Assembly (NCBI GenBank): GCA_965214565.1
Contig: OZ243951.1
Span: 1,281,017-1,345,016, forward strand
From: Candidatus Aldehydirespiratoraceae bacterium
GTDB taxonomy: Bacteria; Actinomycetota; Acidimicrobiia; Acidimicrobiales; Aldehydirespiratoraceae
Direction: 5' to 3'
DNA: 64,000 nt
Part shown: piece by piece, positions 9,059-25,484 of the stretch
How positions within the stretch are numbered: the first letter of the stretch is position 1
Layout: each line of letters starts with the position of its first letter
The notes under the pieces: model-generated
The model's input: only the letters and a program-made list of their open reading frames with translations
Databases searched by the model: none
What the model was told of the DNA's origin: nothing
Made by a program: the position numbers and the translations under genes

Positions 9059-9179
9059 CGCGCCCTGATTGATAGTGCTACGGTCGCCCCACGCCTGCAG
9101 AAGCTGACACCGCGGCGCTCGCCAACGCACCCCGGCCACGCCCACGCAGGTCGTACATTCATTTTCAATTGGGGGAGAC

Positions 9180-10580
9180 ATGGCCACTGATCTTGAGATG
9201 TTCGTAGGGGCCGATGGCCGCGAAGAGCAGGTAAGGGAGGTGGAAGCCCGTATCGAAGCCGACAACATCCAGTACTTGTACTGCCAGTTCCTTTCCGTCA
9301 CAGGACGGATCATGGGCAAAGGCATACCGGCTAAGCATTTCGGCATGATCGCCCGGAAAGGCTTCCAACTCGTCTACGGCTCGACAGCAAACCTGTTCAT
9401 CGACCGTCACGGTGACTACATCGGTTACGGGCCCGAGGCCCGCGAGTTGGTCGGCCTCGCCGAACCGGAGACTTTCATGCCTCTGCCGTGGGACAGTCGC
9501 ACGGCACGGGTCTGGTGCACGCTGTTTCGCGGTCGTGAAGAGGAAGTCGACGGCGGCGCCTTCCTGACCTCGGACTGCCGGGGCAACCTCAAGCGCATCC
9601 ACGCCGAGTTCGAGGCCAAGCACGGGCTGCATCTCCGTGCGGGCTGCGAGCCCGAGATGATGTGGCTGCGAGCCGACGAACACGGCAAACCCACCGTCGA
9701 GGGCTTGACCAAGCCCAACTGCTACCACATCGACCAGTTCGCGGAGCTGCAACCGCTGATCCACAGGGTCGTCGAGTACTGCGAGGCGATGGGTCTCGAC
9801 ATGATCCAGGGCGACCACGAGGACGCACCCGGGCAGCTGGAGCTCAACTTCAACTTCGACCGGGCCGAACTCACCGCCGACCGGCTGAGCACCTACCGAC
9901 AGGTGTGCAAGCAGGTGGGCCGGGAGTTGGGCGCGTTTCCGTGCTTCATGCCCAAGCCCTTCATGGGCGTGTCTGCCAACGGATGCCACCACAACATCTC
10001 GCTGTGGGACGCGGACGGAAACAACAAGTTCATGCCCGAGGGGGACAACCCGCAATTGCCGGGCCCGGTCGGCATGAAGGCCATCGGGGGGATCCTCGAG
10101 CATGTCCGTGCGCTCACCTGCTTGACGTCACCGACCGTCAACTCCTACCGCAGGCTGTGGGACACCGGCTTCTGGGCGCCTGTGTTCGCCGACTGGGGAT
10201 TCCAGAACCGCACCACTGCGCTGCGGGTCAGCGCACCGGGGCGCTTCGAATACCGCTCCGTGGACAGTGCGGTCAACCCAGCCCTGTCGTTCGCCGGTCT
10301 GCTGAAGGCCATGGACGATGGTCTGGACCGCAGTCTCGACCCGGGCGAGCCCGAGGAGCGCAACATCTACGAAGCCCTGAAGGAGGGCAAGCAGGTCAAG
10401 AAGATCCCGCTCACCTTGGGCGAGGCGCTCGAGGCGCTCGACAACGACGAGGTCGTCAAGTCGGCGCTTCCCGGCGAGATGTACAAGGTGTTCACGCACT
10501 ACAAGACCGACGAGTGGGAGCGGTTCCTGCACACCGTCTCAGACTGGGATGTTGAGGAGTACCTCGACGTCCTGCCCTGA
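9180..10580 (+). CDS. gmaS: Type III glutamine-synthetase-like enzyme, probable gamma-glutamylmethylamide synthetase
   Basis: 466-aa GS-family ORF directly upstream of mgsABC-type genes. This is the known gene order of the N-methylglutamate pathway. SD 'gggggag'. Confidence 0.7.
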   Translation: MATDLEMFVGADGREEQVREVEARIEADNIQYLYCQFLSVTGRIMGKGIPAKHFGMIARKGFQLVYGSTANLFIDRHGDYIGYGPEARELVGLAEPETFMPLPWDSRTARVWCTLFRGREEEVDGGAFLTSDCRGNLKRIHAEFEAKHGLHLRAGCEPEMMWLRADEHGKPTVEGLTKPNCYHIDQFAELQPLIHRVVEYCEAMGLDMIQGDHEDAPGQLELNFNFDRAELTADRLSTYRQVCKQVGRELGAFPCFMPKPFMGVSANGCHHNISLWDADGNNKFMPEGDNPQLPGPVGMKAIGGILEHVRALTCLTSPTVNSYRRLWDTGFWAPVFADWGFQNRTTALRVSAPGRFEYRSVDSAVNPALSFAGLLKAMDDGLDRSLDPGEPEERNIYEALKEGKQVKKIPLTLGEALEALDNDEVVKSALPGEMYKVFTHYKTDEWERFLHTVSDWDVEEYLDVLP

Positions 10581-10666
10581 TCCGCACTGCTCAACGGGCC
10601 CGCCTGTTGGGCTGCTTCAACGTCAACAACAATTCACAACATCAGAACAATTAGGGAGGTAGCACC

Positions 10667-11596
10667 ATGTGCGGCATCGCAGGAGTGATCCACCGCGACG
10701 GCACGGCCGATATAGGCGCCGAATTGACAGCCATGCTGCAGGCAATGAAGCACCGCGGGCCGGATTCCACCGGCTACGCGGTGTACGGACCGGCCGACGA
10801 TCTTGTCGTTATCCGCTTCGTGCTCGCCGAGCCGAACCGCAGCACCGGTTTCGGCATGGAGGAACGACTGGCTCGCAACCGGATGGAGGTGGAAGCTCGG
10901 CTCGCCAAGATCGGTGCCAAGGTGGCGACAGTCACCAGCGACACCGGATATGCGTTCCGGGCTACGGTCCGCTACAGCGGTGAACTCAAGCCACTGGCCG
11001 ACTACCTCGAAGATGTTCCAGGTTGTGAGGTGCTGTCGCTGGGCAATTCGCTGGAGATCATCAAGGACATGGGAGACGCCGACACCGTGAGTGACCAGTA
11101 CGGCCTGGGCTCGTTTAGGGGGACTCACGGAGTTGGGCATGTGCGCATGGCCACCGAGTCCGAGGTCGACCTGGCAAGTGCACATCCCTACTGGGCCTAC
11201 CCGTTCGCCGATGTGGCAGTGGTCCACAACGGGCAGTTGACCAACTATCACCAATGGCGCCGCCGGCTCGAGCAGGCGGGACATCGGTTCCAGAGCGAGT
11301 GCGACTCCGAGATCATCGCGGTGTATCTCGCTGAGAAGATGTCGGGCGGGTTGTCACTGGAGACGTCCATGAAGGACAGCCTCGACGACCTCGACGGTGT
11401 TTTCACCTACGTCTGTGTCACGGGCAACGAGTTGGGGATCGCCAAAGATGAGATGGCCGCCAAACCGCTGGTGCTGTTCGAGTCTGACGATCTGGTGGCG
11501 GTGGCCACCGAGGAAGTGTCGATCCGGACCCTGGTCAAGCGCGAGGTCGAGACCCGCGACCCGTATGAGCGGGAGGTGTTGGTATGGCAAGTGTAG
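10667..11596 (+). CDS. mgsA: N-methylglutamate synthase subunit A (class II glutamine amidotransferase-like)
   Basis: 309 aa with the N-terminal nucleophile 'MCGIAGV', followed by a GXGXG subunit and an FMN subunit. Confidence 0.75.
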   Translation: MCGIAGVIHRDGTADIGAELTAMLQAMKHRGPDSTGYAVYGPADDLVVIRFVLAEPNRSTGFGMEERLARNRMEVEARLAKIGAKVATVTSDTGYAFRATVRYSGELKPLADYLEDVPGCEVLSLGNSLEIIKDMGDADTVSDQYGLGSFRGTHGVGHVRMATESEVDLASAHPYWAYPFADVAVVHNGQLTNYHQWRRRLEQAGHRFQSECDSEIIAVYLAEKMSGGLSLETSMKDSLDDLDGVFTYVCVTGNELGIAKDEMAAKPLVLFESDDLVAVATEEVSIRTLVKREVETRDPYEREVLVWQV

Positions 11597-12375
11597 GTTC
11601 ACGCAGCGGCGTCTCTTACGACGCTCGGGGCCTTGTCGAACCCCAGGCCGAGATGCCCGACAACATCGAGGTCGACGGCGGCAAGGCGCGCTTCGACGCC
11701 ACCGACCTGACCATCCGCCAGATCAACATGGCCTTTCGGAAACTGATCTACAACGACGGCATAGTCGATGTGACGGTGCTCAACCCGTCCTCCAAGCATT
11801 CGCTTGCGGTTGGGATCTTGAAGCGCTGTCGGATCCATTTTGAGGGAAGCCCCGGCTGGTTCGCCTGCGGCCTGATCGACGGGCCCGAGGTGACGATCAA
11901 CGGTCGGGTCGGCTGGTCGCTCGCAGAGAACATGATGTCGGGCGTGGTCGTGGTCGAGCGCGGCGCAGGCTCGCTCACCGGAGCCGCGATCCGCGGCGGT
12001 GACCTGATCGTGAAGGGCGATGTGGGCGCTCGCACCGGCATCGACCAGAAGGGCGGCACGATCATCGTGATGGGCAACGTCGGGATCAACACCGGGTTCA
12101 TGATGCAGCGCGGCCGTCAGATCATCTGCGGCAACGCCGGCGAGAACCTCGGCGACTCGATGTATGACGGTCAGATCTACGTCGGAGGGAAGGTGAGTTC
12201 CCTGGGAGTCGACTGCGTGCCCGGTGAATGGACAGATGCCGACACCGAGTTGATCGAACGCAAGTTCCGGATCCACGGGCTGGGAGACCCGCCGCCGTTC
12301 GAGAAGTTCGTCTGCGGCAAGCAGCTGCACAACTACGACGCACTCGAACCGTCAGAGCGCAAGCTCGTGATCTGA
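11584..12375 (+). CDS. mgsB: N-methylglutamate synthase subunit B (GXGXG / GltB domain-3-like)
   Basis: 263 aa with repeated beta-helix G-rich motifs ('VVERGAGSLTGAAIRGGDLIVKGDVGARTGIDQKGGTIIVMGNVG'). It overlaps the mgsA stop by 13 nt. Confidence 0.75.
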   Translation: MASVGSRSGVSYDARGLVEPQAEMPDNIEVDGGKARFDATDLTIRQINMAFRKLIYNDGIVDVTVLNPSSKHSLAVGILKRCRIHFEGSPGWFACGLIDGPEVTINGRVGWSLAENMMSGVVVVERGAGSLTGAAIRGGDLIVKGDVGARTGIDQKGGTIIVMGNVGINTGFMMQRGRQIICGNAGENLGDSMYDGQIYVGGKVSSLGVDCVPGEWTDADTELIERKFRIHGLGDPPPFEKFVCGKQLHNYDALEPSERKLVI

Positions 12376-12426
12376 ACCCGGACACAACACCGAGAGAAGA
12401 CAGCGAGAGAACATAAGGAGACGACG

Positions 12427-13821
12427 ATGAGCGAAGTGAACAAGAGTACAGATGTGTTGGGGCAGAGCCGGATATTCACCCGCGAGGTGATCAACGACAT
12501 CCACGTGAAGTCCGAACTGGGCCGTTACCGGATGCGAGGCTTCTCGATCTTCAAGAAGATCCCGCACTGGGACGAGCTGGTGTTCCTGCCGGGAACCCTC
12601 ACCCGATTCGTGATCGAGGGTTACCGCGAGAAGTGCGAGACGAAGACCGTGCTCGGGTCGCGTTTCGCGGCCAAGCCGCTGGAACTCGACATTCCGGTCT
12701 ACATCACCGGCATGAGCTTCGGTGCTCTGTCGCTGGAGGCCAAAATGGCGCTGGCGAAGGGCGCCTCAATGGCCGGGACCGCCACCTGCTCGGGCGAGGG
12801 CGGCATGATCCCGCCCGAACGGGACCTGTCGACCAAGTGGTACTACCAGATCATTCAGAGCCGCTACGGTTTCAACCCTCATCACCTGATGTTGGCCGAC
12901 GCGGTGGAGTTCTTCATCGGCCAGGGATGCAAGGTCGGCCTCGGCGGCCACCTGATGGGCCAGAAAGTCACCGAGCAGGTGGCTGAGATGCGGTCGCTGC
13001 CCGCGGGTATCGATCAGCGTTCACCGGCTCGGCATCCCGACTGGCTCGGTCCCGACGATCTCTCGTTGAAGATCCAGGAGGTACGTGAGGCCACCGACTA
13101 CCAGATCCCGATCCAGCTGAAGCTGGGGTCGGCCCGGGTCTATGACGATGTGCGCATGGCCGCCAAGTGCGGTCCTGACGTGATCTATCTCGACGGCGCC
13201 GAGGGCGGTACCGGTGCCGGGCCGCACCTGGCCACCGAGGAAACCGGAATCCCGTTGATGGCGGCTATCCCGGAGGCTCGTCGAGCGCTCGAGGACGTGG
13301 GCCTCGCCGACGACATCGACCTGGTGGTAGCCGGCGGTATTCGCAACGGCGGCGATGTGGCCAAGTGCCTGGCGCTGGGTGCCGACGCCATCGCTATCGG
13401 CAGCGCGGCCCTGATGGCTCTCAACTGCAACAAGGAGATCCCGGGTGTCACCGACTATGAGGGCACCATCGGTGTACCCGCCGGCGAGTGCTACCACTGC
13501 CATACTGGTCGCTGCCCGGTGGGTGTGGCCACCCAGGATGTGGAGCTACGCAAACGCCTCGACGTCGACGAGGCGGCCCTGCGGGTCTACAACTTCTTGA
13601 TCACCCTCACGATGGAGGTGCAGATGTTGGCCCGGGCCTGCGGAAAGACCGACATTCATTCGCTGGAGCCCGAGGACCTCGCCGCTCTGACCTATGAGGC
13701 GGCGGCCATGGCCAAGGTGCCGTTGGCCGGCACCACCTACATTCCCGGTGTCACCGAGGAGAACACTCTGGCCGAGATACGCGAACTGTTCGACAAGCAC
13801 GTGATCGATGGAGGCAACTGA
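12427..13821 (+). CDS. mgsC: N-methylglutamate synthase subunit C (FMN-binding glutamate-synthase family)
   Basis: 464 aa with GltS FMN-domain motifs 'ITGMSFGALS', 'SGEGG' and 'LDGAEGGTGA'. Confidence 0.8.
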   Translation: MSEVNKSTDVLGQSRIFTREVINDIHVKSELGRYRMRGFSIFKKIPHWDELVFLPGTLTRFVIEGYREKCETKTVLGSRFAAKPLELDIPVYITGMSFGALSLEAKMALAKGASMAGTATCSGEGGMIPPERDLSTKWYYQIIQSRYGFNPHHLMLADAVEFFIGQGCKVGLGGHLMGQKVTEQVAEMRSLPAGIDQRSPARHPDWLGPDDLSLKIQEVREATDYQIPIQLKLGSARVYDDVRMAAKCGPDVIYLDGAEGGTGAGPHLATEETGIPLMAAIPEARRALEDVGLADDIDLVVAGGIRNGGDVAKCLALGADAIAIGSAALMALNCNKEIPGVTDYEGTIGVPAGECYHCHTGRCPVGVATQDVELRKRLDVDEAALRVYNFLITLTMEVQMLARACGKTDIHSLEPEDLAALTYEAAAMAKVPLAGTTYIPGVTEENTLAEIRELFDKHVIDGGN

Positions 13822-14278
13822 GATGGCCGGATCGGCAAGCACGGGCGAGAGCCCATCGGAAGTCCGCACTGTGGCGATCGACGCAGAGGTGTTGGCCGGC
13901 AAGCGTTTCCCCTATCAGGAGGACATAACGCTCGTGGCCGACATCGATCTGCTCGCCAACACGCCCGGGCCCGACATCAACTGGCTCGAAGACATCACCC
14001 TGTTGGAGGAGGACGGCGTGCCGGCGGTGTTCGACCGTTACTCGAACTCGTTCCTGAAGATCTATTTCGACATCCCCGAGGGCCAAGAGGACGACATCGC
14101 CCGCAAGGTTCTGATCAGGCATCTCGTGGACGGGAACTCCTATGGCATCGCCTTGAAGGACATCCACTGCAAGTTCCCGCAGGTTGAACTGGGGCCGTGG
14201 GTGGAGGAGTCGCGCATTGTGGGAGAGAACTGGAAACCGACCGAGCTTGAGGGCTGGTCTGCGCCTCAGGCGCATTGA
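13808..14278 (+). CDS. Hypothetical acidic protein translationally coupled to mgsC
   Basis: 156-aa ORF whose start overlaps the mgsC stop by 14 nt. It is followed by a SoxB-like flavoprotein. I recognise no family. Confidence 0.45.
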   Translation: MEATEMAGSASTGESPSEVRTVAIDAEVLAGKRFPYQEDITLVADIDLLANTPGPDINWLEDITLLEEDGVPAVFDRYSNSFLKIYFDIPEGQEDDIARKVLIRHLVDGNSYGIALKDIHCKFPQVELGPWVEESRIVGENWKPTELEGWSAPQAH

Positions 14279-14314
14279 GGCCCGGGTCAGGCCAGGAACA
14301 AACAAGGAGCAGTA

Positions 14315-15646
14315 GTGAGTCTTCCCCGAAGTTCCCGTTATGTGATCATCGGTGCCGGCATCCACGGTTTGTCGACTGCTTGGAACCTGGCCCGTGATCT
14401 GCGTTCATCGGGCCGCGGCTCCGGCGCCGACGTGATCGTCATCGACAAGGCCGGTGTCGGTGCGGGGGCTTCGGGCATTGCCTGTGGCGTGATCCGCAAC
14501 AACTATTTCCAGCCCGCGATGCGCGAGTTGATGGCGCATTCGGTGGATGTCTGGGAGAGCGATCCGGAGGCATTCTCGTATCATCCGGTGGGGTACTTGC
14601 AGATCAGCCATGAGGCGATGCATGAAGATGTCGCCTCGATTCATGCTCAACAGCAGGCCATCGGTTACGCGTCGACTTTCGTGGAGGGGGCTGAGGATTC
14701 CCGCCGCCACATGTTGGGTATTTTTGACGACTGGCAAGCGCAGGGCATCACCAGCGTTCTTCAGGAGCATCGCGGGGGTTACGCCAACAATATGGCCTCG
14801 CTCAAGGGCCTGTTGGGCAAGGCGGAGGCTGAGGGCGTGGCGGTGGTTGGGGGCGTGTCCGTGATGGGTTTTGAGCGTGACGCCACCGGGGCGGTGACCG
14901 GCGTGGTCACCGATCAGGGAAGCGTGGAGTGTGATCAGGTGGTGGTGGCGGTGGGGCCGTGGGTGCAGAAGATCTGGGCGATGCTCGACCTTCCGGTGGT
15001 CACCGACGTGCTCGGGCCCGACGGTGCGGTGTATCGGCGTCCGACCTGGACCTACATGTGTCTGCAGGAGGGCACGCTGGAGGTCGATCCAGGCTATCTC
15101 GTCGACAATGCCAACAATATGCCGCCGGTGGTGCATATCGATACCGACGCGCCGCTCTATGACGCAGACGGCCTGGTCACCGAGGGGCCGTGGGGTGTGT
15201 ACTACAAGCCCGATTTCAATTTCGGTGGCGTGCAGGGCGGGTATATGCCCTATGTGGTGGACAAGCCCGGCGAGGAGGTGGCGGTCGATCCCTACGGGCC
15301 GGAGTCACCGGATTTCGTGGTGGGTGAGGACTTCTATCGCACCTGGTCTGCGGCGCTGGCTCATTGTCAGAAGCGTTTCGAGGGCAAGGGTCATCTGATG
15401 AGCCGTGAGCCCTCTGGTGGTATCGGCAGTTTCTCGCCGGACAACTTTCCGGTGTTCGACATGTTCTGTGACAACGTGTACTTCATCGCCGATTCGAACC
15501 ACGGCTACAAGATGATCGGTGTGGGCGCGCTTGTGGCCCGGGAGTTGTTGGGTGAGCCTCAGGATCTGCTGGCTCCGTTCTGTTGGTCCCGTTATGCCAC
15601 CGGAGATCTGCATCCAGTGAGCAACTCGCCGTATCCGTGGAGCTGA
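14315..15646 (+). CDS. FAD-dependent oxidoreductase (sarcosine oxidase beta / DAO family)
   Basis: 443 aa with the dinucleotide fold 'YVIIGAGIHGLSTAWNLA'. GTG start with SD 'aaggag'. Confidence 0.75.
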   Translation: MSLPRSSRYVIIGAGIHGLSTAWNLARDLRSSGRGSGADVIVIDKAGVGAGASGIACGVIRNNYFQPAMRELMAHSVDVWESDPEAFSYHPVGYLQISHEAMHEDVASIHAQQQAIGYASTFVEGAEDSRRHMLGIFDDWQAQGITSVLQEHRGGYANNMASLKGLLGKAEAEGVAVVGGVSVMGFERDATGAVTGVVTDQGSVECDQVVVAVGPWVQKIWAMLDLPVVTDVLGPDGAVYRRPTWTYMCLQEGTLEVDPGYLVDNANNMPPVVHIDTDAPLYDADGLVTEGPWGVYYKPDFNFGGVQGGYMPYVVDKPGEEVAVDPYGPESPDFVVGEDFYRTWSAALAHCQKRFEGKGHLMSREPSGGIGSFSPDNFPVFDMFCDNVYFIADSNHGYKMIGVGALVARELLGEPQDLLAPFCWSRYATGDLHPVSNSPYPWS

Positions 15647-15658
15647 GATGGCTTGCAG

Positions 15659-16093
15659 ATGAATGTCACTGGTAGTTGTGCGTGCGGTGCGGTGCGGTTC
15701 ACGTTGAACGGGCCGCTGCGGCCTGTGATCAACTGTCACTGTTCGCGCTGTCGGCATTGGACGGGCCATTTCATGGCCGCCACGAACACACACCGGGACG
15801 ATCTCTCGTTCAAGCGGGGTGTCGACTCGGTGAGGTGGTGGACTCCCGACGAGGAGCCGACCGTGTCCTATGGATTCTGCGCTCTCTGCGGGGGCAGCCT
15901 GTTCTGGCGCTCGAGTGCCAAGCCCGGGAGGTATTCGATAACTGCCGGGGCGCTCGACCCGCCGACTGGTCTTGACACTGTGCATGCCCTGTTCACGGCC
16001 GAGGCGAGCGACTACCACCGCCTCGATTCCGATCTCCCCCACCATCCCTACGATTCTGGTGGCGGCGTCCAATTCGAGGGCGGCTGGACATAG
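15659..16093 (+). CDS. GFA-family (glutathione-dependent formaldehyde-activating / CENP-V-like) protein
   Basis: Cys-rich Zn motifs 'CACGAVRF', 'CHCSRCR' and 'CALCG'. I prefer the ATG at 15659 over the TTG at 15653. Confidence 0.75.
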   Translation: MNVTGSCACGAVRFTLNGPLRPVINCHCSRCRHWTGHFMAATNTHRDDLSFKRGVDSVRWWTPDEEPTVSYGFCALCGGSLFWRSSAKPGRYSITAGALDPPTGLDTVHALFTAEASDYHRLDSDLPHHPYDSGGGVQFEGGWT

Positions 16094-16106
16094 CCGTTCG
16101 GCGGGG

Positions 16107-17294: not shown

Positions 17295-17313
17295 GGGCTT
17301 GGCGGTGAGCCAG

Positions 17314-18660
17314 TCAGGCTTCGGTGGCCAGGAACGATTCGAGCGAGTCGTCCAGGGCCTCGACCCAGTCGGTGTGGTGTGTCGGCGCGACCGTGCCGGT
17401 CATCGGTGAGGTGTGGCCGTTGTCGCGGTAACCGATGATCGACTGTTTCTTGTGCCCCTTCCAGTCTTTGAACATCTGGGAGACCAGCGGTGTGTTGAAG
17501 TCCGGGTAGTCGCTCTGTTCAAGCAGGTCCTGGGTGTAGGCGCCCTGGTAGTCGATGAGGCCGTAGTCGTCCTCGACGGCGTCCTCGATCGCTTGTTCCT
17601 CGGCGATGCTGCGGGCCTGCTCGTCGGCCGACGGCAGTTCGATACGTCCGAGGATGACGTCGCGGGCGTACCAGGCCTGCACGTCGAACATGTTGAACGT
17701 GTACCACTGGTCCTGCATGCCCAAATACATCACCCCGTTGTCGGGCTGGAAGACCACACCGCGGTAGAGCATCGAGGAGGCCAACCGGTTGGTGGTGGCT
17801 AGGCGCAGGTTGTCGTCCATGTACGGGAAGTGGTGCAGATATCCGGTGCAGGAGATGATGGCGTCGATCTCCGTTGAGGTGCCGTCGACGAAATGCACGG
17901 TGCGGCTGTCGACGTGGCTGAGGATCGGCTTCTCGGTGATGCCGTCGGGCCAGTTGAAACCCATGGGTCCGCTGCGTGATGAGCATACGACTGAGCGTGC
18001 GCCGTACTTCCAGCACTGCGAGGCGATGTCCTCTGCTGAGTAGCTCGATCCGATGATCATCACGTTCTGGCCGGCGAACTGCACTGCGTCGCGGAAGTCG
18101 TGGGCGTGCAGGAGTGTGCCGCCGAAGGTGTCGTAGCCGGGGTATTGCGGCATGTTGGGCGTGGAGAAGTGCCCGCTGGCCACCACCACGTAGTCGAACT
18201 CCTCGGTGTTGGTCGTGTCGCTCTCGTGGTCGTGTGCCCGCACGACGAACCGGCCCGTCTCAGGTGAGCGGCTCACGCTGCGCACTGCCTGGTTGAAACG
18301 GATGTACTTGCGGATTCCGCTGCGCGTGGCGCGGCCGACGATGTAGTCGTAGAGGACTTCTCGTGGCGGGAACGAGCCGATAGGCCTGCCGAAGTGCTCT
18401 TCGAAGGTGTAGTCGGCAAATTCCAGGCATTCCTTGGGGCCGTTGGACCACAGGTAGCGGTACATGCTCCCGTGGCACGGCTCGCCGTGTTCGTCGAGGC
18501 CGGTACGCCAGGTGTAGTTCCAGAGACCTCCCCAGTCGTCTTGTTTCTCGTAGCAGACCAGGTCGGGCATTTCTGCTCCGTCGGTTGCCTTGTCGCTCGC
18601 GAAGGCGTGTAGTTGTGCGAGCCCGCATGGTCCAGCACCAATGATGGCGACGCGTGTCAT
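17314..18660 (-). CDS. tmm: Flavin-containing monooxygenase, probable trimethylamine monooxygenase
   Basis: 448 aa with FAD 'GAGPCG', the FMO motif 'FGGTLLHAHDF' (FxGxxxHxxxF) and NADPH 'GSSYSAED'. It lies adjacent to a Tdm-type gene. Confidence 0.8.
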   Translation of the reverse strand: MTRVAIIGAGPCGLAQLHAFASDKATDGAEMPDLVCYEKQDDWGGLWNYTWRTGLDEHGEPCHGSMYRYLWSNGPKECLEFADYTFEEHFGRPIGSFPPREVLYDYIVGRATRSGIRKYIRFNQAVRSVSRSPETGRFVVRAHDHESDTTNTEEFDYVVVASGHFSTPNMPQYPGYDTFGGTLLHAHDFRDAVQFAGQNVMIIGSSYSAEDIASQCWKYGARSVVCSSRSGPMGFNWPDGITEKPILSHVDSRTVHFVDGTSTEIDAIISCTGYLHHFPYMDDNLRLATTNRLASSMLYRGVVFQPDNGVMYLGMQDQWYTFNMFDVQAWYARDVILGRIELPSADEQARSIAEEQAIEDAVEDDYGLIDYQGAYTQDLLEQSDYPDFNTPLVSQMFKDWKGHKKQSIIGYRDNGHTSPMTGTVAPTHHTDWVEALDDSLESFLATEA

Positions 18661-18756
18661 GGTCCAAATCCCCCCTGTGATTGGTTGTACCTCTAACGAG
18701 AGGAAACTTAGCGCACTCTGAGCTCTGTTGTCGTCCCCAAGATGCTTAGTGCTGAG

Positions 18757-21132
18757 TCAGGGGGCGGGGACGTCGCGGACTCGGGACTTCGTGGGGTCGT
18801 AGAAGGGGAAGGGAACGACGGTCGCGGGGATCCGTTTCTGGTGGCCGTCAATCTTGCCGACTTCGACTTGGGTGCCGGTCTCTGCGTATTCGACTGCCAT
18901 GCGGCACAGGGCGATGTTCTTGCGCAGGGTCGGCGAGATGGTGCCGCTGGTGACCGTTCCCACCTGAAACCGGCCGACGTACACCCCGTCTCCAAGGGCT
19001 CCTGGTTCTCCGCCCTGCAGTTCGAGGCCGACCAACCGGCGCTGCGGGTTGTCTCGGCGTTTGAGCAGCGCTTCGCGTCCGATGAAGTCGTCTTCTTTAG
19101 TCTTGAGGGGGACGGTGAAGCCGATGCCCGCCTCGTAGGGGTCGGTCTGGTCGCAGAACTCGTAGCCGGCGAAGATCAGGCCTGCTTCGATGCGGAGGAG
19201 GTCGAGCGCTTCGAGTCCCATCGGCACCAGCCCGTGCTCGGCGCCGGCCTCGAATATCGCGTCCCAGAGGTCCGGCGCGTTCGACGGGTGGCAGAAGATC
19301 TCGAATCCGAGTTCGCCGGTGTAGCCGGTGCGCGAGACGATCAACGGGACGCCGCTGTGGCCACCGATCCGGGCGATGGCGAAGCGGAACCATCCGAGCT
19401 CGCTGACGTTGGGCTGGTCGGGACGGGTCCAGATGATCTGTTCGAGGATCCTCCGGCTGTTGGGGCCTTGGACCTGCAGGTTGTGGAGCTGGTCGGTGGA
19501 GTCCTTCACCCAGGCCCGCAGGCCGCGTTCAGTTGCCTGTTGGCGGATCCACAGGCCGCTGACGTCGCTACCTCCGATCCAGCGGAAGTTCTCGCGGCTG
19601 AGGCGGAAGACCGTGCCGTCGTCGACCATTCCGCCGGTGTCGTAGCACATGGCTGTGTAGACGACCTGGCCGTCGGAGAGCTTGCGGATGTTGCGGGTGA
19701 CGCAGGTCTGCATCAGCAGTTCTGCGTCGGGGCCTGCGACTTCGTATTTCCGCAACGGTGAGAGGTCTATTGCGGCGGCTGCTTGTCGGCAGGCCCAGTA
19801 CTCCTCGGTGACGCCGTGGTCACGGTAGGAGTTGGCGAGCCAGTAACCGTTGTATTCGGTGAAGTTGCGGGTGAGGGCGGAGCTGCGGGGGTGAAAGCCT
19901 GTGTCTTCGGTGAGTTCGGCTTCAGAGTCGGCTGTCATGCGGAATGCGGTCCCTTTCTTGAACATGTTGTTGGCGGGGTAGACGCGGACCTGGATGTCGG
20001 TGGGGTTCCAGCCGTTGGCGGCGTCGATGTCGCAGGGGCAGGCGGTCGATACGCACACGAGGTCTTCGAGTGCCCGCATCAGCACATAGTCGCCGGGCCT
20101 CGACCAGGGTTCGTCGAAGTAGATCTGGTTTTTGTCGTCGACGTGGGTGTTGTAGAAGAAGTTGATGGCCTCCCAGCCGCGGCGGGCGGCCACTCCGTAG
20201 GGGGACCAGACGCGGTTGATATTGTCTGTGCAGTTGGCGTGGCCGGGGAATCCCATCTCTTCGTAGTAGCGGGAGTTGCAGGCGGTGTTGAAGGTGTCGT
20301 GCCGTCCGACAGTGTCCTGCACGACTTCGACGAGCGGCTGCATCTCGGCGTTGTAGAACTTGGAAAACAGCCCGGGCTCGGGGCAGGTGGCGCCCATCAG
20401 GGTCCGGGTGATGGTGCCGTCGAGGCAGTTCGCTCTGCCCTGCTCCAGGTCGCTGACGGCGAAGCACTGGAAGTCTGAGCATTCCCGGCCCTCGATGTCG
20501 ACCACCTGGAAGTAGTCGCCCTTGGCGACTTCGTAGGCTTGCGCGGTCGCGGCCGGGATTGTGAAGTCGTTGGCAGGGTCGGCGAGCGGGGCGGGGAGGT
20601 GGACTTCTCCGGGCTCTGGCAGCGCGGCCCGGTGGACGTAGACGATGAGGTCGGTGGGCGGGTTGTGGTCCTGTGGTTCCATCGGCCCGCCGGGGGCTGC
20701 CACGATCACCGCGATCGGCGCTGACGCAGTGTAGGTGGCCGTGCTGCCCGGCGGTGAGTCCGGTTCGAACACCAGCGCGGGGCGGGCCCCGCTCAGGTCG
20801 ATGCCCTGTCGCTCCAGTCCTGCTCGGACTCTTCGGGCGTCGCTGAGCGGAGAGGACAGGATCGTGTGGGTGGCATTGGTTGAGCCTCGATCAGCGGCGG
20901 TGGCGCCGAGCAGTCCCGGGTCGCTCACGCCCTGGGCGTCGAAGGCGCTCAGCTCGCACTGCTGGCGGCCTTCGGGGTCGATGATCTCGATGCGGTCTCC
21001 AGGGTCGAGCGCCAACGCGGTGGCGCCGCCTCCGGTGACCCGGTACCGTTCGGTGCCCGGGTCGAGCAGCCACAGACCGGGTTCGAGCACCCTCGGCAGC
21101 ACTTTGTCGATACTGATCGTGCTAATGCTCAT
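18757..21132 (-). CDS. tdm: DUF1989 + GcvT-domain fusion, probable TMAO demethylase
   Basis: 791 aa with an N-terminal DUF1989-like half ('KGDYFQVVDIEGRECSDFQCF'). The C-terminal aminomethyltransferase half has 'TGYTGELGFEIF'. This is the architecture described for Tdm. Confidence 0.8.
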   Translation of the reverse strand: MSISTISIDKVLPRVLEPGLWLLDPGTERYRVTGGGATALALDPGDRIEIIDPEGRQQCELSAFDAQGVSDPGLLGATAADRGSTNATHTILSSPLSDARRVRAGLERQGIDLSGARPALVFEPDSPPGSTATYTASAPIAVIVAAPGGPMEPQDHNPPTDLIVYVHRAALPEPGEVHLPAPLADPANDFTIPAATAQAYEVAKGDYFQVVDIEGRECSDFQCFAVSDLEQGRANCLDGTITRTLMGATCPEPGLFSKFYNAEMQPLVEVVQDTVGRHDTFNTACNSRYYEEMGFPGHANCTDNINRVWSPYGVAARRGWEAINFFYNTHVDDKNQIYFDEPWSRPGDYVLMRALEDLVCVSTACPCDIDAANGWNPTDIQVRVYPANNMFKKGTAFRMTADSEAELTEDTGFHPRSSALTRNFTEYNGYWLANSYRDHGVTEEYWACRQAAAAIDLSPLRKYEVAGPDAELLMQTCVTRNIRKLSDGQVVYTAMCYDTGGMVDDGTVFRLSRENFRWIGGSDVSGLWIRQQATERGLRAWVKDSTDQLHNLQVQGPNSRRILEQIIWTRPDQPNVSELGWFRFAIARIGGHSGVPLIVSRTGYTGELGFEIFCHPSNAPDLWDAIFEAGAEHGLVPMGLEALDLLRIEAGLIFAGYEFCDQTDPYEAGIGFTVPLKTKEDDFIGREALLKRRDNPQRRLVGLELQGGEPGALGDGVYVGRFQVGTVTSGTISPTLRKNIALCRMAVEYAETGTQVEVGKIDGHQKRIPATVVPFPFYDPTKSRVRDVPAP

Positions 21133-21493
21133 CGTCGGTTGCCTCGGAAGGCGCGGAGACCGAGGCGAACAGGTCCCAAAGCAGAAGCACCGCTGTCGCC
21201 AGTGCGGCGACAGTCACGATGATCACGCCGATGCCGAGATCGGGGGGACCGCTGCTGGAGAGGTTCAGCATGGCTCGCCCGGCGACGGCTGCGACGAATC
21301 CCGCGCCGCACCATGCCGGTCGAAACTTGACTCGGATCAGCACGAAGGTGACGAGTAGTGCGAGGAAGGCCACTTGGCCGTCGTTGGCACCGAAGCCGTT
21401 CGTGTCGGTATCGCCGGTCTCCCAGGGAAGGAGAAGGGAGGCGACGGCGATAACCAAGCAGAGCTGAGCCAGATGCGCACGCGTGAGCCTCAT
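21122..21493 (-). CDS. Membrane protein (4 predicted TM), start of tdm overlaps its stop
   Basis: 123-aa hydrophobic ORF overlapping the tdm start by 11 nt. Confidence 0.45.
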   Translation of the reverse strand: MRLTRAHLAQLCLVIAVASLLLPWETGDTDTNGFGANDGQVAFLALLVTFVLIRVKFRPAWCGAGFVAAVAGRAMLNLSSSGPPDLGIGVIIVTVAALATAVLLLWDLFASVSAPSEATDDEH

Positions 21494-21566
21494 GATCGGC
21501 TCAGCGTTGATGGCGGGAGTGTAGGGGGCACATCAACGTGAACTGTACCCCCTACCCCGCTGGGCG

Positions 21567-21698
21567 TCAGGCGCCCGCGACGACTTGAATGCAAATGACG
21601 GCGAAGATGATGCAGACGATGGAGAAGATCACCACCGCCCTCTCCACGCCTTTGTCGTGGCCTTGCATTTCGTCGAATTCAACTTGTTTTCCAGCCAT
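21567..21698 (-). CDS. Very small membrane protein (43 aa)
   Basis: 'MAGKQVEFDEMQGHDKGVERAVVIFSIVCIIFAVICIQVVAGA'. Its ATG lies 2 nt after the stop of the 79-aa ORF. It has one TM. Confidence 0.3.
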   Translation of the reverse strand: MAGKQVEFDEMQGHDKGVERAVVIFSIVCIIFAVICIQVVAGA

Positions 21699-21700
21699 GT

Positions 21701-21940
21701 TCAGCCCTCCATGCCCGCGTCTTGCGAGTTGTACTTGCCAGCGAGACGCTCGGCGGATTCGTTGAGCAGGGCATTCTCGCGCCTGGTCACCGCGACTCCG
21801 GAATACACCGAGATGACGATGGCTATGAGCGTGATGAGTACCGTGGCGAAGTTTCCGCCTGGTCCCCATGTGAAGTACCCCGTTGTTCCGTCAGCGGCTT
21901 CCAGCGCCGCTTCCCAACTATCGTAGGGAAATGTGTTCAT
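21701..21940 (-). CDS. Small membrane protein (79 aa)
   Basis: One central TM ('FATVLITLIAIVISVYSGVAV'). It lies between amt and tdm. Confidence 0.4.
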   Translation of the reverse strand: MNTFPYDSWEAALEAADGTTGYFTWGPGGNFATVLITLIAIVISVYSGVAVTRRENALLNESAERLAGKYNSQDAGMEG

Positions 21941-22109
21941 TTAGTTCTCCTTAATGAGTGAACGTTTGTTCAGGTCGTGTTGTCTCAGGTGGGGCGGTCC
22001 GGCTTCTTTCGTCGGCGCTTGCGCATCCCCCAGTACCCGGCGGACGCGACCACGAGGTACATGAGTGCGATTGCTGCGATGAACTGAAGCCATGAACCGG
22101 ACACCCTCG

Positions 22110-23495
22110 CTATTTGAGGTCGGCGTAGGCCGCTCGTAGAACAGCTTCAGCCGGCTCTTCGGAACCGTCGGCGTTGACGATCGGCTCAGTGGCACGACCG
22201 AACTCCGGATAGAAGTCCGTCTCGAACTCTGCCATGTCGAGGCCCTCGATCTCCACTTCGGGCGGGACCCGCAGCAGGTTCATCTTCTTGAGGATTCCAG
22301 ATCCGATGTAGCCGGAGAGGAATGCCAATGGGAACAGAGCTGCAACACCCACGAGCTGGCCGAGGAACGAGGTTTCGATTCCTGCGGCGCCGGTCGGGTA
22401 GCCCCCGGCGACGATGCCAACCAGCAGTACGCCCCAGAACCCCATGACTCCGTGGACTGCGACCGCTCCGACTGCGTCGTCGATCCGGGCTTTCTGCTCA
22501 ATCCAGTTGCCTACGTGGTAGGCGAGGCCAGCGGAGAAGAACGCAAGTATCAAGACCAGCGACGGGTTGTAGATGTCGGCGCCTGCCGACACCGCCACTA
22601 CCCCGGCGAGGCCTCCGGACAATGTCCAGAACGGGTCACCCTTGGCGAAGATGTATCCGCCGGCGAAGCCGCCCGCGAAGCCCATCGTGATCGTGAAGGT
22701 GATCGCTGACAGTGTTGCCGGGTTGAAGTAGATGTTGGCCCAACCGGGTGTGGTATCGGCGGTGATCGCCAGACAAGCTGCGTAGAAGGCGTAGAACGCG
22801 GTGAAGATGATCATCAGCCCCATCAACGTGAGATGAAGGTTGTGGGGCTTGAACACTCGGGTGCCTCCGTTGCGGTCGTATCTGCCGATTCTCGGACCCA
22901 GGTTGAACAACACCCCCAGGGCAAAGATTCCGGCGATGCCGTGGACCACGCCTGATGCAGCGAAGTCGTGGTAGCCGAAGTGGATTGGCAACCAACCTCC
23001 GTAGCTCCACCCCCAGGCTGCGGCGATCACCCAGATCAGACCACCCATGAGGGCGGTCAACCACAGGTATGCCGAGATGCGGATGCGCTCGAGCACAGCA
23101 CCGGACATGATCGAACCGGTCGTCCAGGAGAACAGTACGAATGCGGCCCAGAAGACACCGCTGATGTTGTCACCGAGGTTGGGGCCCATTGAGCCGTCCC
23201 ATGGGACGCCGTAGCCGTCACCGCAGAAATACGCTCCTTCCCCTGCGTTCCCTGCCCCGTCGGCTGTGGTCGTCGGTATGAAACCTTCCTCCATACAGAA
23301 GTAGACCCACCACCCGAGGTAGTAGAACGTCGGTGTGACCACCGCGATAGTCATAATGTTCTTCATCGCCGTGGACATGATGTTCTTGCGTCGGCTTACG
23401 CCAGCTTCGTAGGTCATGAAACCTACGTGCAGTAACCACATGATCGCGACGGTGAAGAAGTAATAGGCCTCTGTGAACACTACTGATGTGTCCAT
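22110..23495 (-). CDS. amt: Ammonium/methylammonium transporter (Amt family)
   Basis: 461 aa, polytopic, with Amt signatures 'DFAASGVVHGIAGIFALG' and 'AVAVHGVMGFWGVLLVG'. Confidence 0.9.
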   Translation of the reverse strand: MDTSVVFTEAYYFFTVAIMWLLHVGFMTYEAGVSRRKNIMSTAMKNIMTIAVVTPTFYYLGWWVYFCMEEGFIPTTTADGAGNAGEGAYFCGDGYGVPWDGSMGPNLGDNISGVFWAAFVLFSWTTGSIMSGAVLERIRISAYLWLTALMGGLIWVIAAAWGWSYGGWLPIHFGYHDFAASGVVHGIAGIFALGVLFNLGPRIGRYDRNGGTRVFKPHNLHLTLMGLMIIFTAFYAFYAACLAITADTTPGWANIYFNPATLSAITFTITMGFAGGFAGGYIFAKGDPFWTLSGGLAGVVAVSAGADIYNPSLVLILAFFSAGLAYHVGNWIEQKARIDDAVGAVAVHGVMGFWGVLLVGIVAGGYPTGAAGIETSFLGQLVGVAALFPLAFLSGYIGSGILKKMNLLRVPPEVEIEGLDMAEFETDFYPEFGRATEPIVNADGSEEPAEAVLRAAYADLK

Positions 23496-23618
23496 AGGCG
23501 CACCCCCAATTCTTCGTGCTAATTCCGACCTTGTGGCCGGACATCGGCGACACTAGCACACCGGCGGCAAAGTGTCGAATGTCACTTTTGCCCTTTGTGG
23601 CGTACGTGGCTGAAGTGG

Positions 23619-23981
23619 CTAACCGTCGGGGGCGGTGATCTCGATGTCGAGGACGTCGCCGGTGCTGGCGTCTACCCTCACGGTTGCGTGGTGGAGGAAA
23701 TCGTTGCGGCCTCCGTCCGGGTCGTGCACGGTGAACACGACGATCCAGACGGCGCTGGTCGGGATCCCCTGGCGCAGCACTCTGGCTTCGGTGTTCTCTG
23801 GCTCGAAATAGCCTTCGTGTACCTCGAATGCGGCTGTGGCGTTGGACACCGCTTCTTCTCGGTCTATATCAACTCCTGAGCATCCGCGCATCAAGAATAC
23901 GACGACCAACAGCCCGGCAGCTACGAACAGCAGCCTGCGCGAGTTCATCCGACCCTTGATTCTGTCGCTCCAGTTGCTCAC
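23619..23981 (-). CDS. Hypothetical exported/anchored protein
   Basis: 120 aa with an N-terminal hydrophobic anchor 'LLFVAAGLLVVVFLMRGC'. The family is unknown. Confidence 0.4.
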   Translation of the reverse strand: MSNWSDRIKGRMNSRRLLFVAAGLLVVVFLMRGCSGVDIDREEAVSNATAAFEVHEGYFEPENTEARVLRQGIPTSAVWIVVFTVHDPDGGRNDFLHHATVRVDASTGDVLDIEITAPDG

Positions 23982-23997
23982 GGGCCAGTCACCTCGG

Positions 23998-24267
23998 TTA
24001 GTTGGGGGGCCTGCGCACCAGACGCAGGATCACGTATCCGAACACATGGGTGATCGCCACGAAGCTCATCCACCACAGGGTCGTCTTCCGGTTGTAGGCG
24101 CGCTCCCGGCATTCCCAGAGCGTCAACAGCAGAGCTCCGACGAGGAACAGCCACAGCATGATGCTCTCGGCGGCATCATCGCCTATCAAGATCATCAGAC
24201 CCATGCGGTTGGAGCCTAAACCACATGGTGGCGCGTAACCAGACAAACACGTTGTTGAGCCAAACAT
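23998..24267 (-). CDS. Small membrane protein
   Basis: 89-aa ORF with 2-3 hydrophobic segments. Confidence 0.35.
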   Translation of the reverse strand: MFGSTTCLSGYAPPCGLGSNRMGLMILIGDDAAESIMLWLFLVGALLLTLWECRERAYNRKTTLWWMSFVAITHVFGYVILRLVRRPPN

Positions 24268-24332
24268 GTGGCCACCCGAAACTAACGGCTCGGCGCTTAG
24301 CCCTTGGGCAACAGTTGCTTCTATGCTTCGGG

Positions 24333-25484
24333 ATGCCTGAGATCATGTTCGGGCCTCGGGTCCGGAAATCCCCGTACTACGAGGCGACGGTGGCTGCGGG
24401 TGTCAGCGCCTTCACCGTCTACAACCACATGTACATGCCGATCTCTTACGGTGACCCGGCCGAAGAGTATCGCCGTCTGACTGAGCGGGTGGCGCTGTGG
24501 GACGTGGCCGCCCAACGCCAGATCGAGATTGTCGGCAGTGACGCCGCGGCATTCACCCAGTACCTGTCTGCGCGCGACCTCGGGGGAATGAAACCTGGTC
24601 GGGCTCGTTACGCGCCGATCTGTGATCACGACGGCAACCTGATCAACGATCCTGTGGCGCTGTGTCTCGAAGACGACCGGTTCTGGCTCTCGATCGCCGA
24701 CAGCGACTTGGGCTATCTGGCCAAAGCGGTCGCCGCGGAACGGCGTGCCGATGTGAGGGTTTTCGAGCCGGACGTTTCGCCGTTGGCGATTCAGGGGCCC
24801 TGCGCTGAAGAGCTTGCCGTCGACCTGTTCGGCGCTGATGTGGTGGGTTCGCTGGGGTTCTTCCACCATGTCGGGGTGGAGCTCGACGGGATCGAGTTGG
24901 TGCTGTGCCGGTCCGGATGGAGCAAGCAGGGCGGCTTTGAGCTGTTCTTGACCGACGGGTCTCGGGGTGTGGAGCTCTGGAACAGGGTGATGGCGGCCGG
25001 GGCTCGTTTCGGGATCGGGCCGGGTGCGCCCAATCCGGTTGAGCGGATCGAGAGCGGGCTGCTGTCGTACGGGTCGGACAACGATTCGAGGACGAATCCG
25101 TTCGAGGCCGGGCTCGGGAGGTGGGTGAACCTTGACGGTGAGCACGACTTCGTCGGTAAGGCGGCTCTGCTCGCGCGGGCTGAGCGCGGGATCGAGCGCA
25201 GTCTCATCAACGTCTCGTTCGTCGGTGTCGACGGCTCGAGTTTGGCCGGTGTGCTGCCCCTGGAGCATCCCCGTACGCTGCGGTTGGACGGGCGGGTCGT
25301 GGGCGAGCTTCGCAATGCTGTCTGGTCTCCGCGGCTGGGGCACGGCATAGGTATCGCCCTGGTGGCCACCTCCGCGGCGGTTCCCGGTACGTGCCTGGTG
25401 GTCGAGATCGACGGCACCGTATTCTCGGTGCTGGTATCGCCCGAACCGTTCGGCGCTCCCCGCCGCCCGATAATTCAAAGCTGA
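24333..25484 (+). CDS. Aminomethyltransferase-family (GcvT-like, folate-binding) protein
   Basis: I prefer the ATG at 24333 ('MPEIMFGPRVRKSPYYE'). It has GcvT-like features 'LWDVAAQRQIEIVGSDA', 'SGWSKQGGFELF' and 'ERIESGLLSYGSD'. Confidence 0.75.
   Translation: MPEIMFGPRVRKSPYYEATVAAGVSAFTVYNHMYMPISYGDPAEEYRRLTERVALWDVAAQRQIEIVGSDAAAFTQYLSARDLGGMKPGRARYAPICDHDGNLINDPVALCLEDDRFWLSIADSDLGYLAKAVAAERRADVRVFEPDVSPLAIQGPCAEELAVDLFGADVVGSLGFFHHVGVELDGIELVLCRSGWSKQGGFELFLTDGSRGVELWNRVMAAGARFGIGPGAPNPVERIESGLLSYGSDNDSRTNPFEAGLGRWVNLDGEHDFVGKAALLARAERGIERSLINVSFVGVDGSSLAGVLPLEHPRTLRLDGRVVGELRNAVWSPRLGHGIGIALVATSAAVPGTCLVVEIDGTVFSVLVSPEPFGAPRRPIIQS

Follow-up and report, generated by a model that had tools for sequence, protein, structure and literature searches.

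A probable, long-established methylated-amine catabolic cluster with non-canonical later steps in marine and sponge-associated Acidimicrobiales

In the sea, methylated amines and trimethylamine N-oxide (TMAO) make up large pools of nitrogen and osmolytes and give rise to climate-active aerosols; which organisms consume them is estimated with Tmm, Tdm and GmaS as marker genes. The canonical catabolic gene cluster has been characterised in Methylocella silvestris and Ruegeria pomeroyi (PMC5520151). On plasmid p42e of Rhizobium etli CFN42 the canonical order is tdm ... tmm-dmmB-dmmC-dmmA-dmmD-folD-purU-glnT(gmaS)-mgsCBA-regulators-mgdABCD, where dmmB encodes a DUF3445 protein, dmmC encodes a PDR-type reductase and mgdABCD is soxBDAG-like. 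SAR11 (Pelagibacter) carries tmm, tdm and gmaS without dmmDABC; that SAR11 and further marine groups with these three genes lack dmm has been recognised as a puzzle (PMC5520151). A study of sponges found FMO (flavin-containing monooxygenase) transcripts from Actinobacteria, and tdm and dmm only from Alphaproteobacteria (PMC9999580). Here we describe a cluster with tmm, tdm and a set of N-methylglutamate-type genes in a stretch of 64,000 nt of contig OZ243951.1, hereafter the window, from an actinobacterial metagenome-assembled genome (MAG).

We consider it likely that this cluster is a long-established methylated-amine catabolic system of marine and sponge-associated Acidimicrobiales whose later steps are non-canonical. 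Gene identities were assigned from Pfam and NCBIfam profile searches, sequence matches to the PDB and tblastn across related loci, which comprise tdm with 10 kb on either side (80 tdm loci; 88 loci fetched in all). Judged by its Tdm, the host belongs to an Acidimicrobiales MAG lineage, ‘Candidatus Aldehydirespiratoraceae’, close to the sponge symbiont ‘Ca. Poriferisodalis’: in a GTDB set with one genome per species, the nearest relatives of the window Tdm come from ‘Candidatus Aldehydirespiratoraceae’ MAGs (95%, 94% and 92% identical), and those of ‘Ca. Poriferisodalis’ are about 73% identical. The host is marine and probably sponge-associated; the bin names RHO3, COS4, SB06xx and APA occur among the close matches, and we take these to be sponge metagenome bins.

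The cluster consists of two convergent gene strings in 9180-24204, the plus-strand one running from a glutamine synthetase (GS)-like gene to a GFA-family gene and the minus-strand one from small open reading frames (ORFs) and amt to a DAO-family gene. Gaps between neighbouring genes are short or negative (a 13-bp overlap of mgsA and mgsB, 6 bp between DAO443 and the GFA gene, 19 bp between tmm and DAO395), and each string therefore looks co-transcribed. Every gene that the original prediction had listed was found where it had been placed or close by; its list lacked orf151, which lies between mgsC and DAO443, and five small conserved membrane ORFs around amt. The genes are as follows.

9180-10580, plus strand: GS-like gamma-glutamyl-amine ligase, 466 aa (Pfam Gln-synt_C)
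10667-11596, plus strand: MgsA-like class-II glutamine amidotransferase subunit, 309 aa (Pfam GATase_6, GATase_7)
11584-12375, plus strand: MgsB-like GXGXG subunit, 263 aa (Pfam GXGXG)
12427-13821, plus strand: MgsC-like FMN glutamate-synthase-domain subunit, 464 aa (Pfam Glu_synthase, 313 bits)
13823-14278, plus strand: orf151, a conserved ORF without a family, 151 aa (156 aa if the ORF is taken from 13808)
14315-15646, plus strand: DAO443, DAO-family flavoprotein, 443 aa (Pfam DAO)
15653-16093, plus strand: GFA-family protein (formaldehyde-activating-enzyme fold), 146 aa (Pfam GFA, 74.6 bits)
16107-17294, minus strand: DAO395, DAO-family flavoprotein, 395 aa (Pfam DAO over the full length, 226 bits)
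17314-18660, minus strand: Tmm, trimethylamine monooxygenase, 448 aa (NF058570)
18757-21132, minus strand: Tdm, TMAO demethylase, a DUF1989+GcvT fusion of 791 aa (NF053776)
21122-21493, minus strand: small predicted membrane protein upstream of tdm, 123 aa (tblastn)
21567-21698, minus strand: very small membrane peptide, about 43 aa (tblastn)
21701-21940, minus strand: small membrane protein directly downstream of amt, 79 aa (tblastn; no match in Pfam)
22110-23495, minus strand: Amt-family transporter, 461 aa (Pfam Ammonium_transp, 202 bits)
23619-23981, minus strand: small protein with an N-terminal membrane anchor upstream of amt, 120 aa (tblastn, weak PepSY)
23998-24204, minus strand: small membrane peptide, about 68 aa (tblastn)
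24333-25484, plus strand: DmdA-like GcvT-family protein, about 383 aa (419 aa if the ORF is taken from 24225; PDB 3tfh, NF009133)

The Tdm protein scores 1193 bits against NF053776 (cut-off 1100), with Pfam domains at residues 191-359 (DUF1989), 414-672 (GCV_T) and 698-779 (GCV_T_C). It aligns over residues 25-786 with the cryo-EM structure of Paracoccus TDM (PDB 9q59; 903 bits), whose three-part architecture it shares, and is about 57% identical to R. etli Tdm. Eight of the ten published functional residues (Paracoccus numbering, PMC13619132) are identical: the zinc ligands C285, C301 and C365 are all Cys at the aligned positions, the tetrahydrofolate-site residues R480, F582, F672 and K782 are all present, and D220 of the substrate pocket is kept. 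The pocket differs from that of the Paracoccus enzyme in having Tyr in place of F327 and Cys in place of D367, the latter within a CPCD motif. D367 is the residue mutated in the substrate-trapping double mutant of Paracoccus Tdm (eLife RP109964, PMC13619132). Across the 80 related loci this position is Cys in 56 and Asp in 24; since Cys is the majority state, D367C is likely to be a tolerated natural dimorphism. On these profile and residue matches we assign the 791-aa fusion as a true orthologue of TMAO demethylase, as had been proposed.

Tmm is assigned with similar clarity. It scores 749.4 bits against NF058570 (cut-off 675) over profile positions 1-442 of 443, and displays the FAD motif GAGPCG at residue 8, the FMO motif FGGTLLHAHDF at residue 179 and the NADPH motif GSSYSA at residue 204. 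Solved bacterial FMO/Tmm structures (8b2d, 2vq7, 5ipy, 6kbw, 7d4k) match at 558-653 bits and other FMOs at no more than 185 bits, so the protein does not group with the Baeyer-Villiger or eukaryotic FMO clades; its identity to the Tmm homologue beside the R. etli dmm genes is about 59%. The earlier reading of this FMO as Tmm thus holds, and the sequence evidence indicates a true orthologue of trimethylamine monooxygenase. Some homologues from Acidimicrobiales already bear the name ‘trimethylamine monooxygenase’ in public pipelines. The window Tmm also matches, at 717 bits, a 666-aa entry attributed to the copepod Tigriopus californicus, which could reflect contamination or gene transfer in that assembly.

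The plus-strand string departs further from the described systems. Among NCBIfam models the GS-like ligase matches TIGR03105 best, with 318 bits, where the canonical GmaS copies in two of the fetched loci, a high-GC metagenome contig (L085) and an Actinomycetia MAG (GCA_024227975.1; L088), score 594 and 575 bits. The ligase is 30% identical to R. etli GlnT and 32% identical to the canonical GmaS that scores 594 bits. Alignment of the motifs GDHEDAPGQLELNF and GFWAPVFADWGFQNRTTALRV to canonical GmaS and archaeal GS shows that it keeps the catalytic D177, E186 and R312 of Rhodovulum GmaS (RhGmaS; PDB 7cql; PMC7948447) together with N188 and R317, and that, as in RhGmaS, a Trp (W300) replaces the flap glutamate. 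It has DHED, containing the RhGmaS D177, where GS has HHEV. Unlike RhGmaS, it carries Ile, Phe and Phe in place of Y174, W189 and Y191 (RhGmaS numbering), besides its identity of only about 30% to canonical GmaS. In these residues the protein resembles amine ligases more than glutamine synthetases. We assign the gene, from these comparisons, to a ‘type A’ GmaS paralogue distinct from canonical GmaS, which most probably works like GmaS on monomethylamine.

Beside this ligase the window has adjacent GATase, GXGXG and FMN Glu_synthase genes, the layout of MgsABC. Their products are also diverged: the MgsA-like protein is 33% identical to canonical MgsA and 80% identical to the type-A copy in the Actinomycetia MAG, the MgsB-like protein is 33-40% identical to its canonical counterpart, and the MgsC-like protein is 52-54% identical to canonical MgsC and conserved at 88-99% across Acidimicrobiales. 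The original call of gmaS and mgsABC therefore stands for the genes, the three-gene layout and the catalytic residues, and not for the identity of the ligase as canonical GmaS. The contig of the Actinomycetia MAG holds both kinds of module: a window-type set at 4761-11338, whose six genes are 87, 80, 77, 90, 66 and 73% identical to those of the window, and canonical gmaS-mgsCBA at 15425-19845. The window-type set there is accompanied by Amt, small ORFs and fhs/folD, with tdm and tmm not nearby. Because both occur on one contig, the type-A and canonical gmaS-mgs modules are distinct paralogous families that are probably not redundant.

Directly after the Mgs-like genes come orf151 and DAO443, an order that recurs throughout Acidimicrobiales and in the Actinomycetia MAG. 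DAO443 is SoxB-like in its N-terminal half only. Homologues 70-77% identical to it occur in MAGs of Acidimicrobiia, Gemmatimonadota, Verrucomicrobiota and Gammaproteobacteria, members of a very large family; this family is far more conserved than the neighbouring genes and spans at least four phyla. JGI labels some of these homologues ‘methylglutamate dehydrogenase subunit A’. The label is an annotation and does not reflect orthology, given the low identity of DAO443 to MgdA: the best matches encoded on plasmids with canonical clusters reach no more than 32% over half of the protein, and identity to canonical R. etli MgdA is 24%, which rules DAO443 out as an MgdA orthologue. On the high-GC metagenome contig a DAO443 homologue adjoins tdm and a canonical gmaS-mgs set. 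Its position after the Mgs genes in Acidimicrobiales and beside tdm and gmaS-mgs on that contig makes DAO443 a candidate N-methylglutamate-oxidising enzyme. The same contig encodes, at 2686-4122, a protein with an acyl-CoA-dehydrogenase fold between the DAO443 homologue and tdm, beside folD and the canonical gmaS-mgs genes, in a cluster that is without dmm; it is one more flavoenzyme with no role assigned to it.

The 151-aa protein between MgsC and DAO443 matches nothing in Pfam or NCBIfam even at E=10. Its homologues number 6755, all unnamed. An AlphaFold model made with 20 homologues has a pLDDT of 64, and a Foldseek search of the PDB with it gave no match with E<0.5. The gene always lies between mgsC and DAO443, with synteny in about 30 loci and in the Actinomycetia MAG.

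DAO395, the last gene of the tdm-tmm string, is a different protein. The models that come closest to it, N-methyltryptophan oxidase and monomeric sarcosine oxidase, are both matched below cut-off; its best PDB match is 1y56_B, and it is 25% identical to canonical MgdA. In the sponge-type clades it is conserved beside tmm at 56-96% identity. The region thus does hold two DAO-family flavoprotein genes, as predicted under the heading of SoxB/DAO-like proteins, and neither of them is MgdA. The GFA gene between them occurs only in the closest relatives and in one further locus (L059).

Comparison with R. etli p42e brings out what the locus shares and what it lacks. The two clusters have in common the orthologous Tmm (59%) and Tdm (57%), a GS-family ligase with GATase, GXGXG and Glu_synthase genes, and an overall scheme in which N-methyl groups are removed step by step and the C1 units go to folate. 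In contrast to the plasmid, the window is without dmmDABC, mgdABCD, folD and purU, its GS-like and Mgs paralogues are 30-54% identical to the canonical ones, and it adds orf151, DAO443, DAO395, GFA, Amt and small membrane proteins. Queries with R. etli DmmA, DmmB and DmmC gave zero tblastn matches at E<=1e-5 in the window and the 88 loci, and a DmmD query picked up nothing but the Tdm GcvT domain (31%) and the DmdA-like protein (29%). SoxA-, SoxD- and SoxG-like genes were likewise not found in the 64-kb window, so that mgdABCD is represented by nothing closer than the two DAO proteins. The original prediction had drawn a continuous route from trimethylamine (TMA) through TMAO, dimethylamine (DMA) and monomethylamine (MMA) to N-methylglutamate. 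Its step from DMA to MMA is assumed rather than observed, as the region contains no known enzyme gene for it; its N-methylglutamate catabolism finds partial support in the GS-like/Mgs-like module, mgdABCD being absent from the window. The shared absence of dmmDABC recalls SAR11, with its tmm, tdm and gmaS, from whose published description the window differs in belonging to another phylum, in a ligase that is not canonical GmaS and in the orphan DAO proteins inside the cluster (PMC5520151).

We propose the following pathway. By orthology, Tmm would use NADPH and O2 to convert TMA to TMAO, and Tdm would split TMAO into DMA and formaldehyde at its zinc site and transfer the latter to tetrahydrofolate in its GcvT domain, as the conserved residues also suggest. 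Amt would most likely import methylammonium or ammonium. We read the plus-strand string as an N-methylglutamate pathway built from paralogues, in which the GS-like ligase would join a small amine, most likely monomethylamine, to glutamate at the expense of ATP, the Mgs-like complex would convert the resulting gamma-glutamyl amide to an N-methyl amino acid, and DAO443, perhaps together with orf151, would oxidise the N-methyl group and regenerate glutamate, a role suggested by gene context. As single-subunit enzymes without a folate-binding SoxA/MgdC partner, DAO443 and DAO395 would presumably release free formaldehyde, and such a release would make a function for the intervening GFA gene plausible. 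For DMA there are three possible fates, namely release, as has been proposed for SAR11, conversion by dmm enzymes encoded elsewhere in the genome, and conversion by a non-canonical enzyme of the cluster, the last of which we weakly favour. DAO395 is our tentative choice for the step from DMA to MMA, because it is sarcosine-oxidase-like and probably co-transcribed with tdm and tmm. Orf151, DAO443 and DAO395 are thus candidates for the missing N-demethylation steps. That marine Acidimicrobiales and the other DAO443-bearing phyla carry out the later N-demethylations without Dmm or Mgd, by way of DAO395, of DAO443 with orf151, or of the GS-like/Mgs enzymes acting on dimethylamine, is a broader proposal that we regard as rather doubtful.

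Several observations weigh against this pathway. The GS-like ligase lies below the GmaS cut-off of TIGR03105 (469.6), and scores no better against solved GmaS structures (184-209 bits) than against true glutamine synthetases (209 bits). One of its loops is 9 residues longer than in canonical GmaS and has an Asp aligned to GS Asp50', where canonical GmaS has a deletion and Ala48', in an N-terminal alignment of low confidence. The coexistence of the type-A module with canonical gmaS-mgsCBA on one contig suggests that the two have non-redundant jobs. DAO443 homologues of 75-77% identity are also found away from Mgs genes, next to Peptidase_M24 and ETF genes, an ABC transporter or another flavoprotein (L084, L086 and L087), and the substrate of DAO443 may be other than N-methylglutamate. 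Planktonic Acidimicrobiales have the cluster without DAO395, and an unrelated DAO protein adjoins tdm there; sequence comparison in one such relative (L070) ruled this second DAO out as a DAO395 orthologue. Genes for Dmm, Mgd, FolD or canonical GmaS could lie elsewhere, the DNA seen being 64 kb of the host and 10 kb beside tdm in the relatives.

The main rival for the DMA step is a truncated pathway, in which TMA and TMAO are taken only as far as DMA, for the gain of methylene-tetrahydrofolate and reducing power, with DMA excreted and the GS-like, Mgs and DAO443 proteins serving external monomethylamine brought in by Amt. We judge this possible, if on the unlikely side. It agrees with the lack of dmm genes in the window and in the 10 kb on either side of tdm in the 80 relatives, with the like gap in SAR11 and other marine bacteria that have tmm, tdm and gmaS (PMC5520151), and with the Actinomycetia MAG, where the type-A module and Amt stand alone without tdm or tmm nearby. 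However, the tight and persistent linkage of the tdm-tmm string to the Mgs-type module across the order suggests one pathway, two extra flavoproteins of the secondary-amine-oxidase type sit unassigned in the cluster, and the absence of dmm was established for the part of the genome that the window covers. A quite improbable variant would dispense with free monomethylamine altogether: the type-A ligase and Mgs would take dimethylamine to gamma-glutamyl-dimethylamide and on to N,N-dimethylglutamate, which the two DAO proteins would demethylate in turn. Dimethylglycine and sarcosine dehydrogenases, which remove methyl groups one after the other, offer an analogue. This variant would explain why the type-A paralogue occurs beside a canonical module on one contig, with the different job that this implies, why it is linked to the DMA-producing Tdm throughout Acidimicrobiales, and why there are two orphan flavoproteins of the N-methyl-oxidase type where the classical pathway needs one oxidation. 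Yet it is reached purely by inference, and no enzyme of these families is known to act on a secondary amine like this; some of the clusters lack DAO395, and in the lineage of the high-GC contig tdm lies beside canonical gmaS-mgs and a DAO443 homologue, so both module types may do the monomethylamine job.

Two further alternatives concern the cluster as a whole. The original prediction saw a possible horizontally acquired island, and a recent import of the 16-kb block from marine Alphaproteobacteria of the SAR11, Roseobacter or Methylocella type would fit the 57-59% identity of Tmm and Tdm to R. etli across phyla, the 610-653 bits of Tmm against solved FMO/Tmm structures and the presence of an integrase elsewhere in the window (36572-37633). 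We nevertheless find this extremely improbable. The comparison of codon usage and GC content with the flanks that had been suggested shows the cluster to resemble other metabolic genes: its GC content at third codon positions (GC3, 0.75-0.85) equals that of PtsI, an enolase-family dehydratase, a luciferase-like monooxygenase (LLM) and a sulfatase in the window, while the SLH/FN3 surface proteins, the integrase and a Schlafen-like gene are low in GC3, and GC content stays flat across the cluster borders. No integrase or mobility gene, tRNA, repeat or structured RNA was found at these borders. In the GTDB genome set 555 pattern-matched stretches encode a Tdm relative, and the best 80, which were kept, are almost all from Acidimicrobiales; the closest Tdm relatives (87-95%) are Acidimicrobiales MAGs. 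Dozens of Acidimicrobiales genomes show the order gmaS-like, mgsABC, orf151, DAO443, (GFA), DAO395, tmm, tdm, amt, with proteins 60-97% identical and in syntenic clusters that span 62-95% Tdm identity. Neighbour-joining places the Acidimicrobiales Tdm sequences in a deep, structured clade, with one Verrucomicrobiales-labelled sequence inside it and proteobacterial-MAG sequences basal to or outside it, and Proteobacteria have another paralogue of the Mgs/GS-like half. Because of the matching codon usage and GC3, the synteny across the order and the deep Tdm clade, we conclude from sequence comparison that the cluster is long established in Acidimicrobiales and was not recently acquired; an ancient exchange of tmm and tdm between phyla is possible in view of the 57-59% identity to the Rhizobium proteins. 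The other alternative, which we hold to be very improbable, is that Tmm serves mainly to make TMAO as an osmolyte or to oxidise dimethylsulfide (DMS) to dimethylsulfoxide (DMSO), alongside a DmdA-like demethylase of dimethylsulfoniopropionate (DMSP). Tmm has been treated as DMS-oxidising (PMC13280387; PMC8520302), dmdA has been reported from Acidimicrobiia (PMC13280387), and 0.8 kb past the end of the cluster there is a DmdA-like gene. Against this, tmm adjoins and is co-oriented with the TMAO-consuming tdm, which favours catabolic flux over accumulation of TMAO, and the DmdA-like gene is found only in the nearest relatives and scores below the DmdA cut-off.

That DmdA-like gene encodes the stand-alone GcvT protein that had been counted as part of an amine island. 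The gene is present, but its product has Pelagibacter DmdA (PDB 3tfh) as its best PDB match (284 bits) and matches the DmdA equivalog NF009133, its best NCBIfam model, at full length. Its score against this model, 367.5 bits, lies below the curated cut-off of 410, which leaves a DmdA-like function putative; GcvT models score no more than 163 bits. With these matches and an identity of 29% to canonical DmmD, DmmD or a SoxA-like folate subunit is ruled out. The gene is conserved only in the closest relatives (L001-L010 and L063), together with yaaA, and on this evidence we place it outside the conserved amine cluster, as a DMSP-related neighbour. Its ORF opens at 24225, yet a conserved peptide encoded on the minus strand takes up its first 100 bases and similarity to homologues sets in near residue 38, so that 24333 is probably the true start.

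Amt was correctly predicted, and together with the GS-like/Mgs-like module it belongs to the conserved cluster. The protein scores 220 bits against TIGR00836, below the cut-off, and is a presumed (methyl)ammonium carrier; it occurs at 79-98% identity beside tdm in about 55 loci. The small membrane ORFs around it (five, of about 43 to 123 aa) are also conserved as judged by tblastn: the 123-aa frame, which has no family, in 26-28 loci (36-87% identity), the C-terminal part of the frame of about 43 aa in about 60 loci, the 79-aa protein in 60 loci (36-96%), the 120-aa protein in 57-58 loci (PepSY at E=8e-4, below cut-off) and the peptide of about 68 aa in 61 loci. Apart from the weak PepSY match, none of the five belongs to a family. 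In the Actinomycetia MAG, too, small ORFs follow one another beside Amt.

The relatives differ from the window in the interval between tdm and tmm. In 27 of the 80 loci, including almost all of the closest relatives, some or all of the malate thiokinase genes mtkAB, a malyl-CoA lyase gene and a class-V aminotransferase gene (serine-glyoxylate type) lie there (in L002-L010, L063 and others at about 12.4-16.7 kb of the locus). The closest genome (L001, 13130-15939) keeps only the aminotransferase, with an inserted DNA methylase/HNH gene. In the window tdm and tmm are separated by a 97-bp spacer (18661-18756), and serine-cycle genes are found nowhere in the 64 kb. Since close relatives carry these genes between tdm and tmm and the window has none, the host sublineage has probably lost a linked module for C1 assimilation by the serine cycle, and with that loss the amines are probably used for nitrogen and energy rather than for carbon. 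Even taken alone, such linkage of serine-cycle genes with amine oxidation is unusual for an actinobacterial lineage. The module is present in some relatives and missing in others, which offers a natural comparison of carbon assimilation with use for nitrogen and energy only.

In the literature we found no dedicated description of the cluster, or of its non-canonical second half, in Acidimicrobiia or ‘Poriferisodalis’. The tmm-tdm part is ordinary; the novelty would lie in the paralogous N-methylglutamate-type module and in the orphan flavoproteins as candidates for missing steps. A large radiation of Acidimicrobiales, including sponge symbionts, appears to carry genuine tmm and tdm. Since the type-A paralogues fail the NCBIfam GmaS cut-off, strict GmaS marker models would probably miss this second half, and screens for mgd or dmm would find no such genes at the locus. 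The cluster also provides a short list of candidate genes for the handling of dimethylamine in bacteria without dmm, where the enzyme for the step from DMA to MMA has been missing since 2017.

The remainder of the window fits the actinobacterial background described for it originally, which can now be narrowed to the order Acidimicrobiales: it includes giant SLH proteins with FN3 or RCC1 repeats, the sulfatase, the LLM, an MDMPI_N protein and a DUF222-HNH protein. An Rfam search of the window gave no match, and promoter- or terminator-like sites in it are not commoner than in shuffled sequence. The left flank (41-7485) holds a phosphotransferase (PTS) set of enzyme I, a PRD-type regulator and a mannitol-type EIIC, with a DUF4143 AAA ATPase, and is unrelated to the amine cluster; it is followed at 7629-8612 (minus strand) by an ORF of 327 aa that has no family and no counterpart in related loci. 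To the right, at 26453-28114, lies a gene for a 553-aa protein with Schlafen/AlbA_2, HATPase_c_4 and wHTH domains, which has the lowest GC3 of the nearby genes and is found in only some close relatives (L003, L005). Between 29567 and 53269 are five very large SLH-anchored surface proteins, four of them carrying FN3 repeats and the fifth about 19 RCC1 repeats, and the tyrosine integrase gene (36572-37633) lies among them. The GC3 of this region is below that of the rest, and it resembles the variable region of eukaryote-like repeats reported for sponge symbionts.

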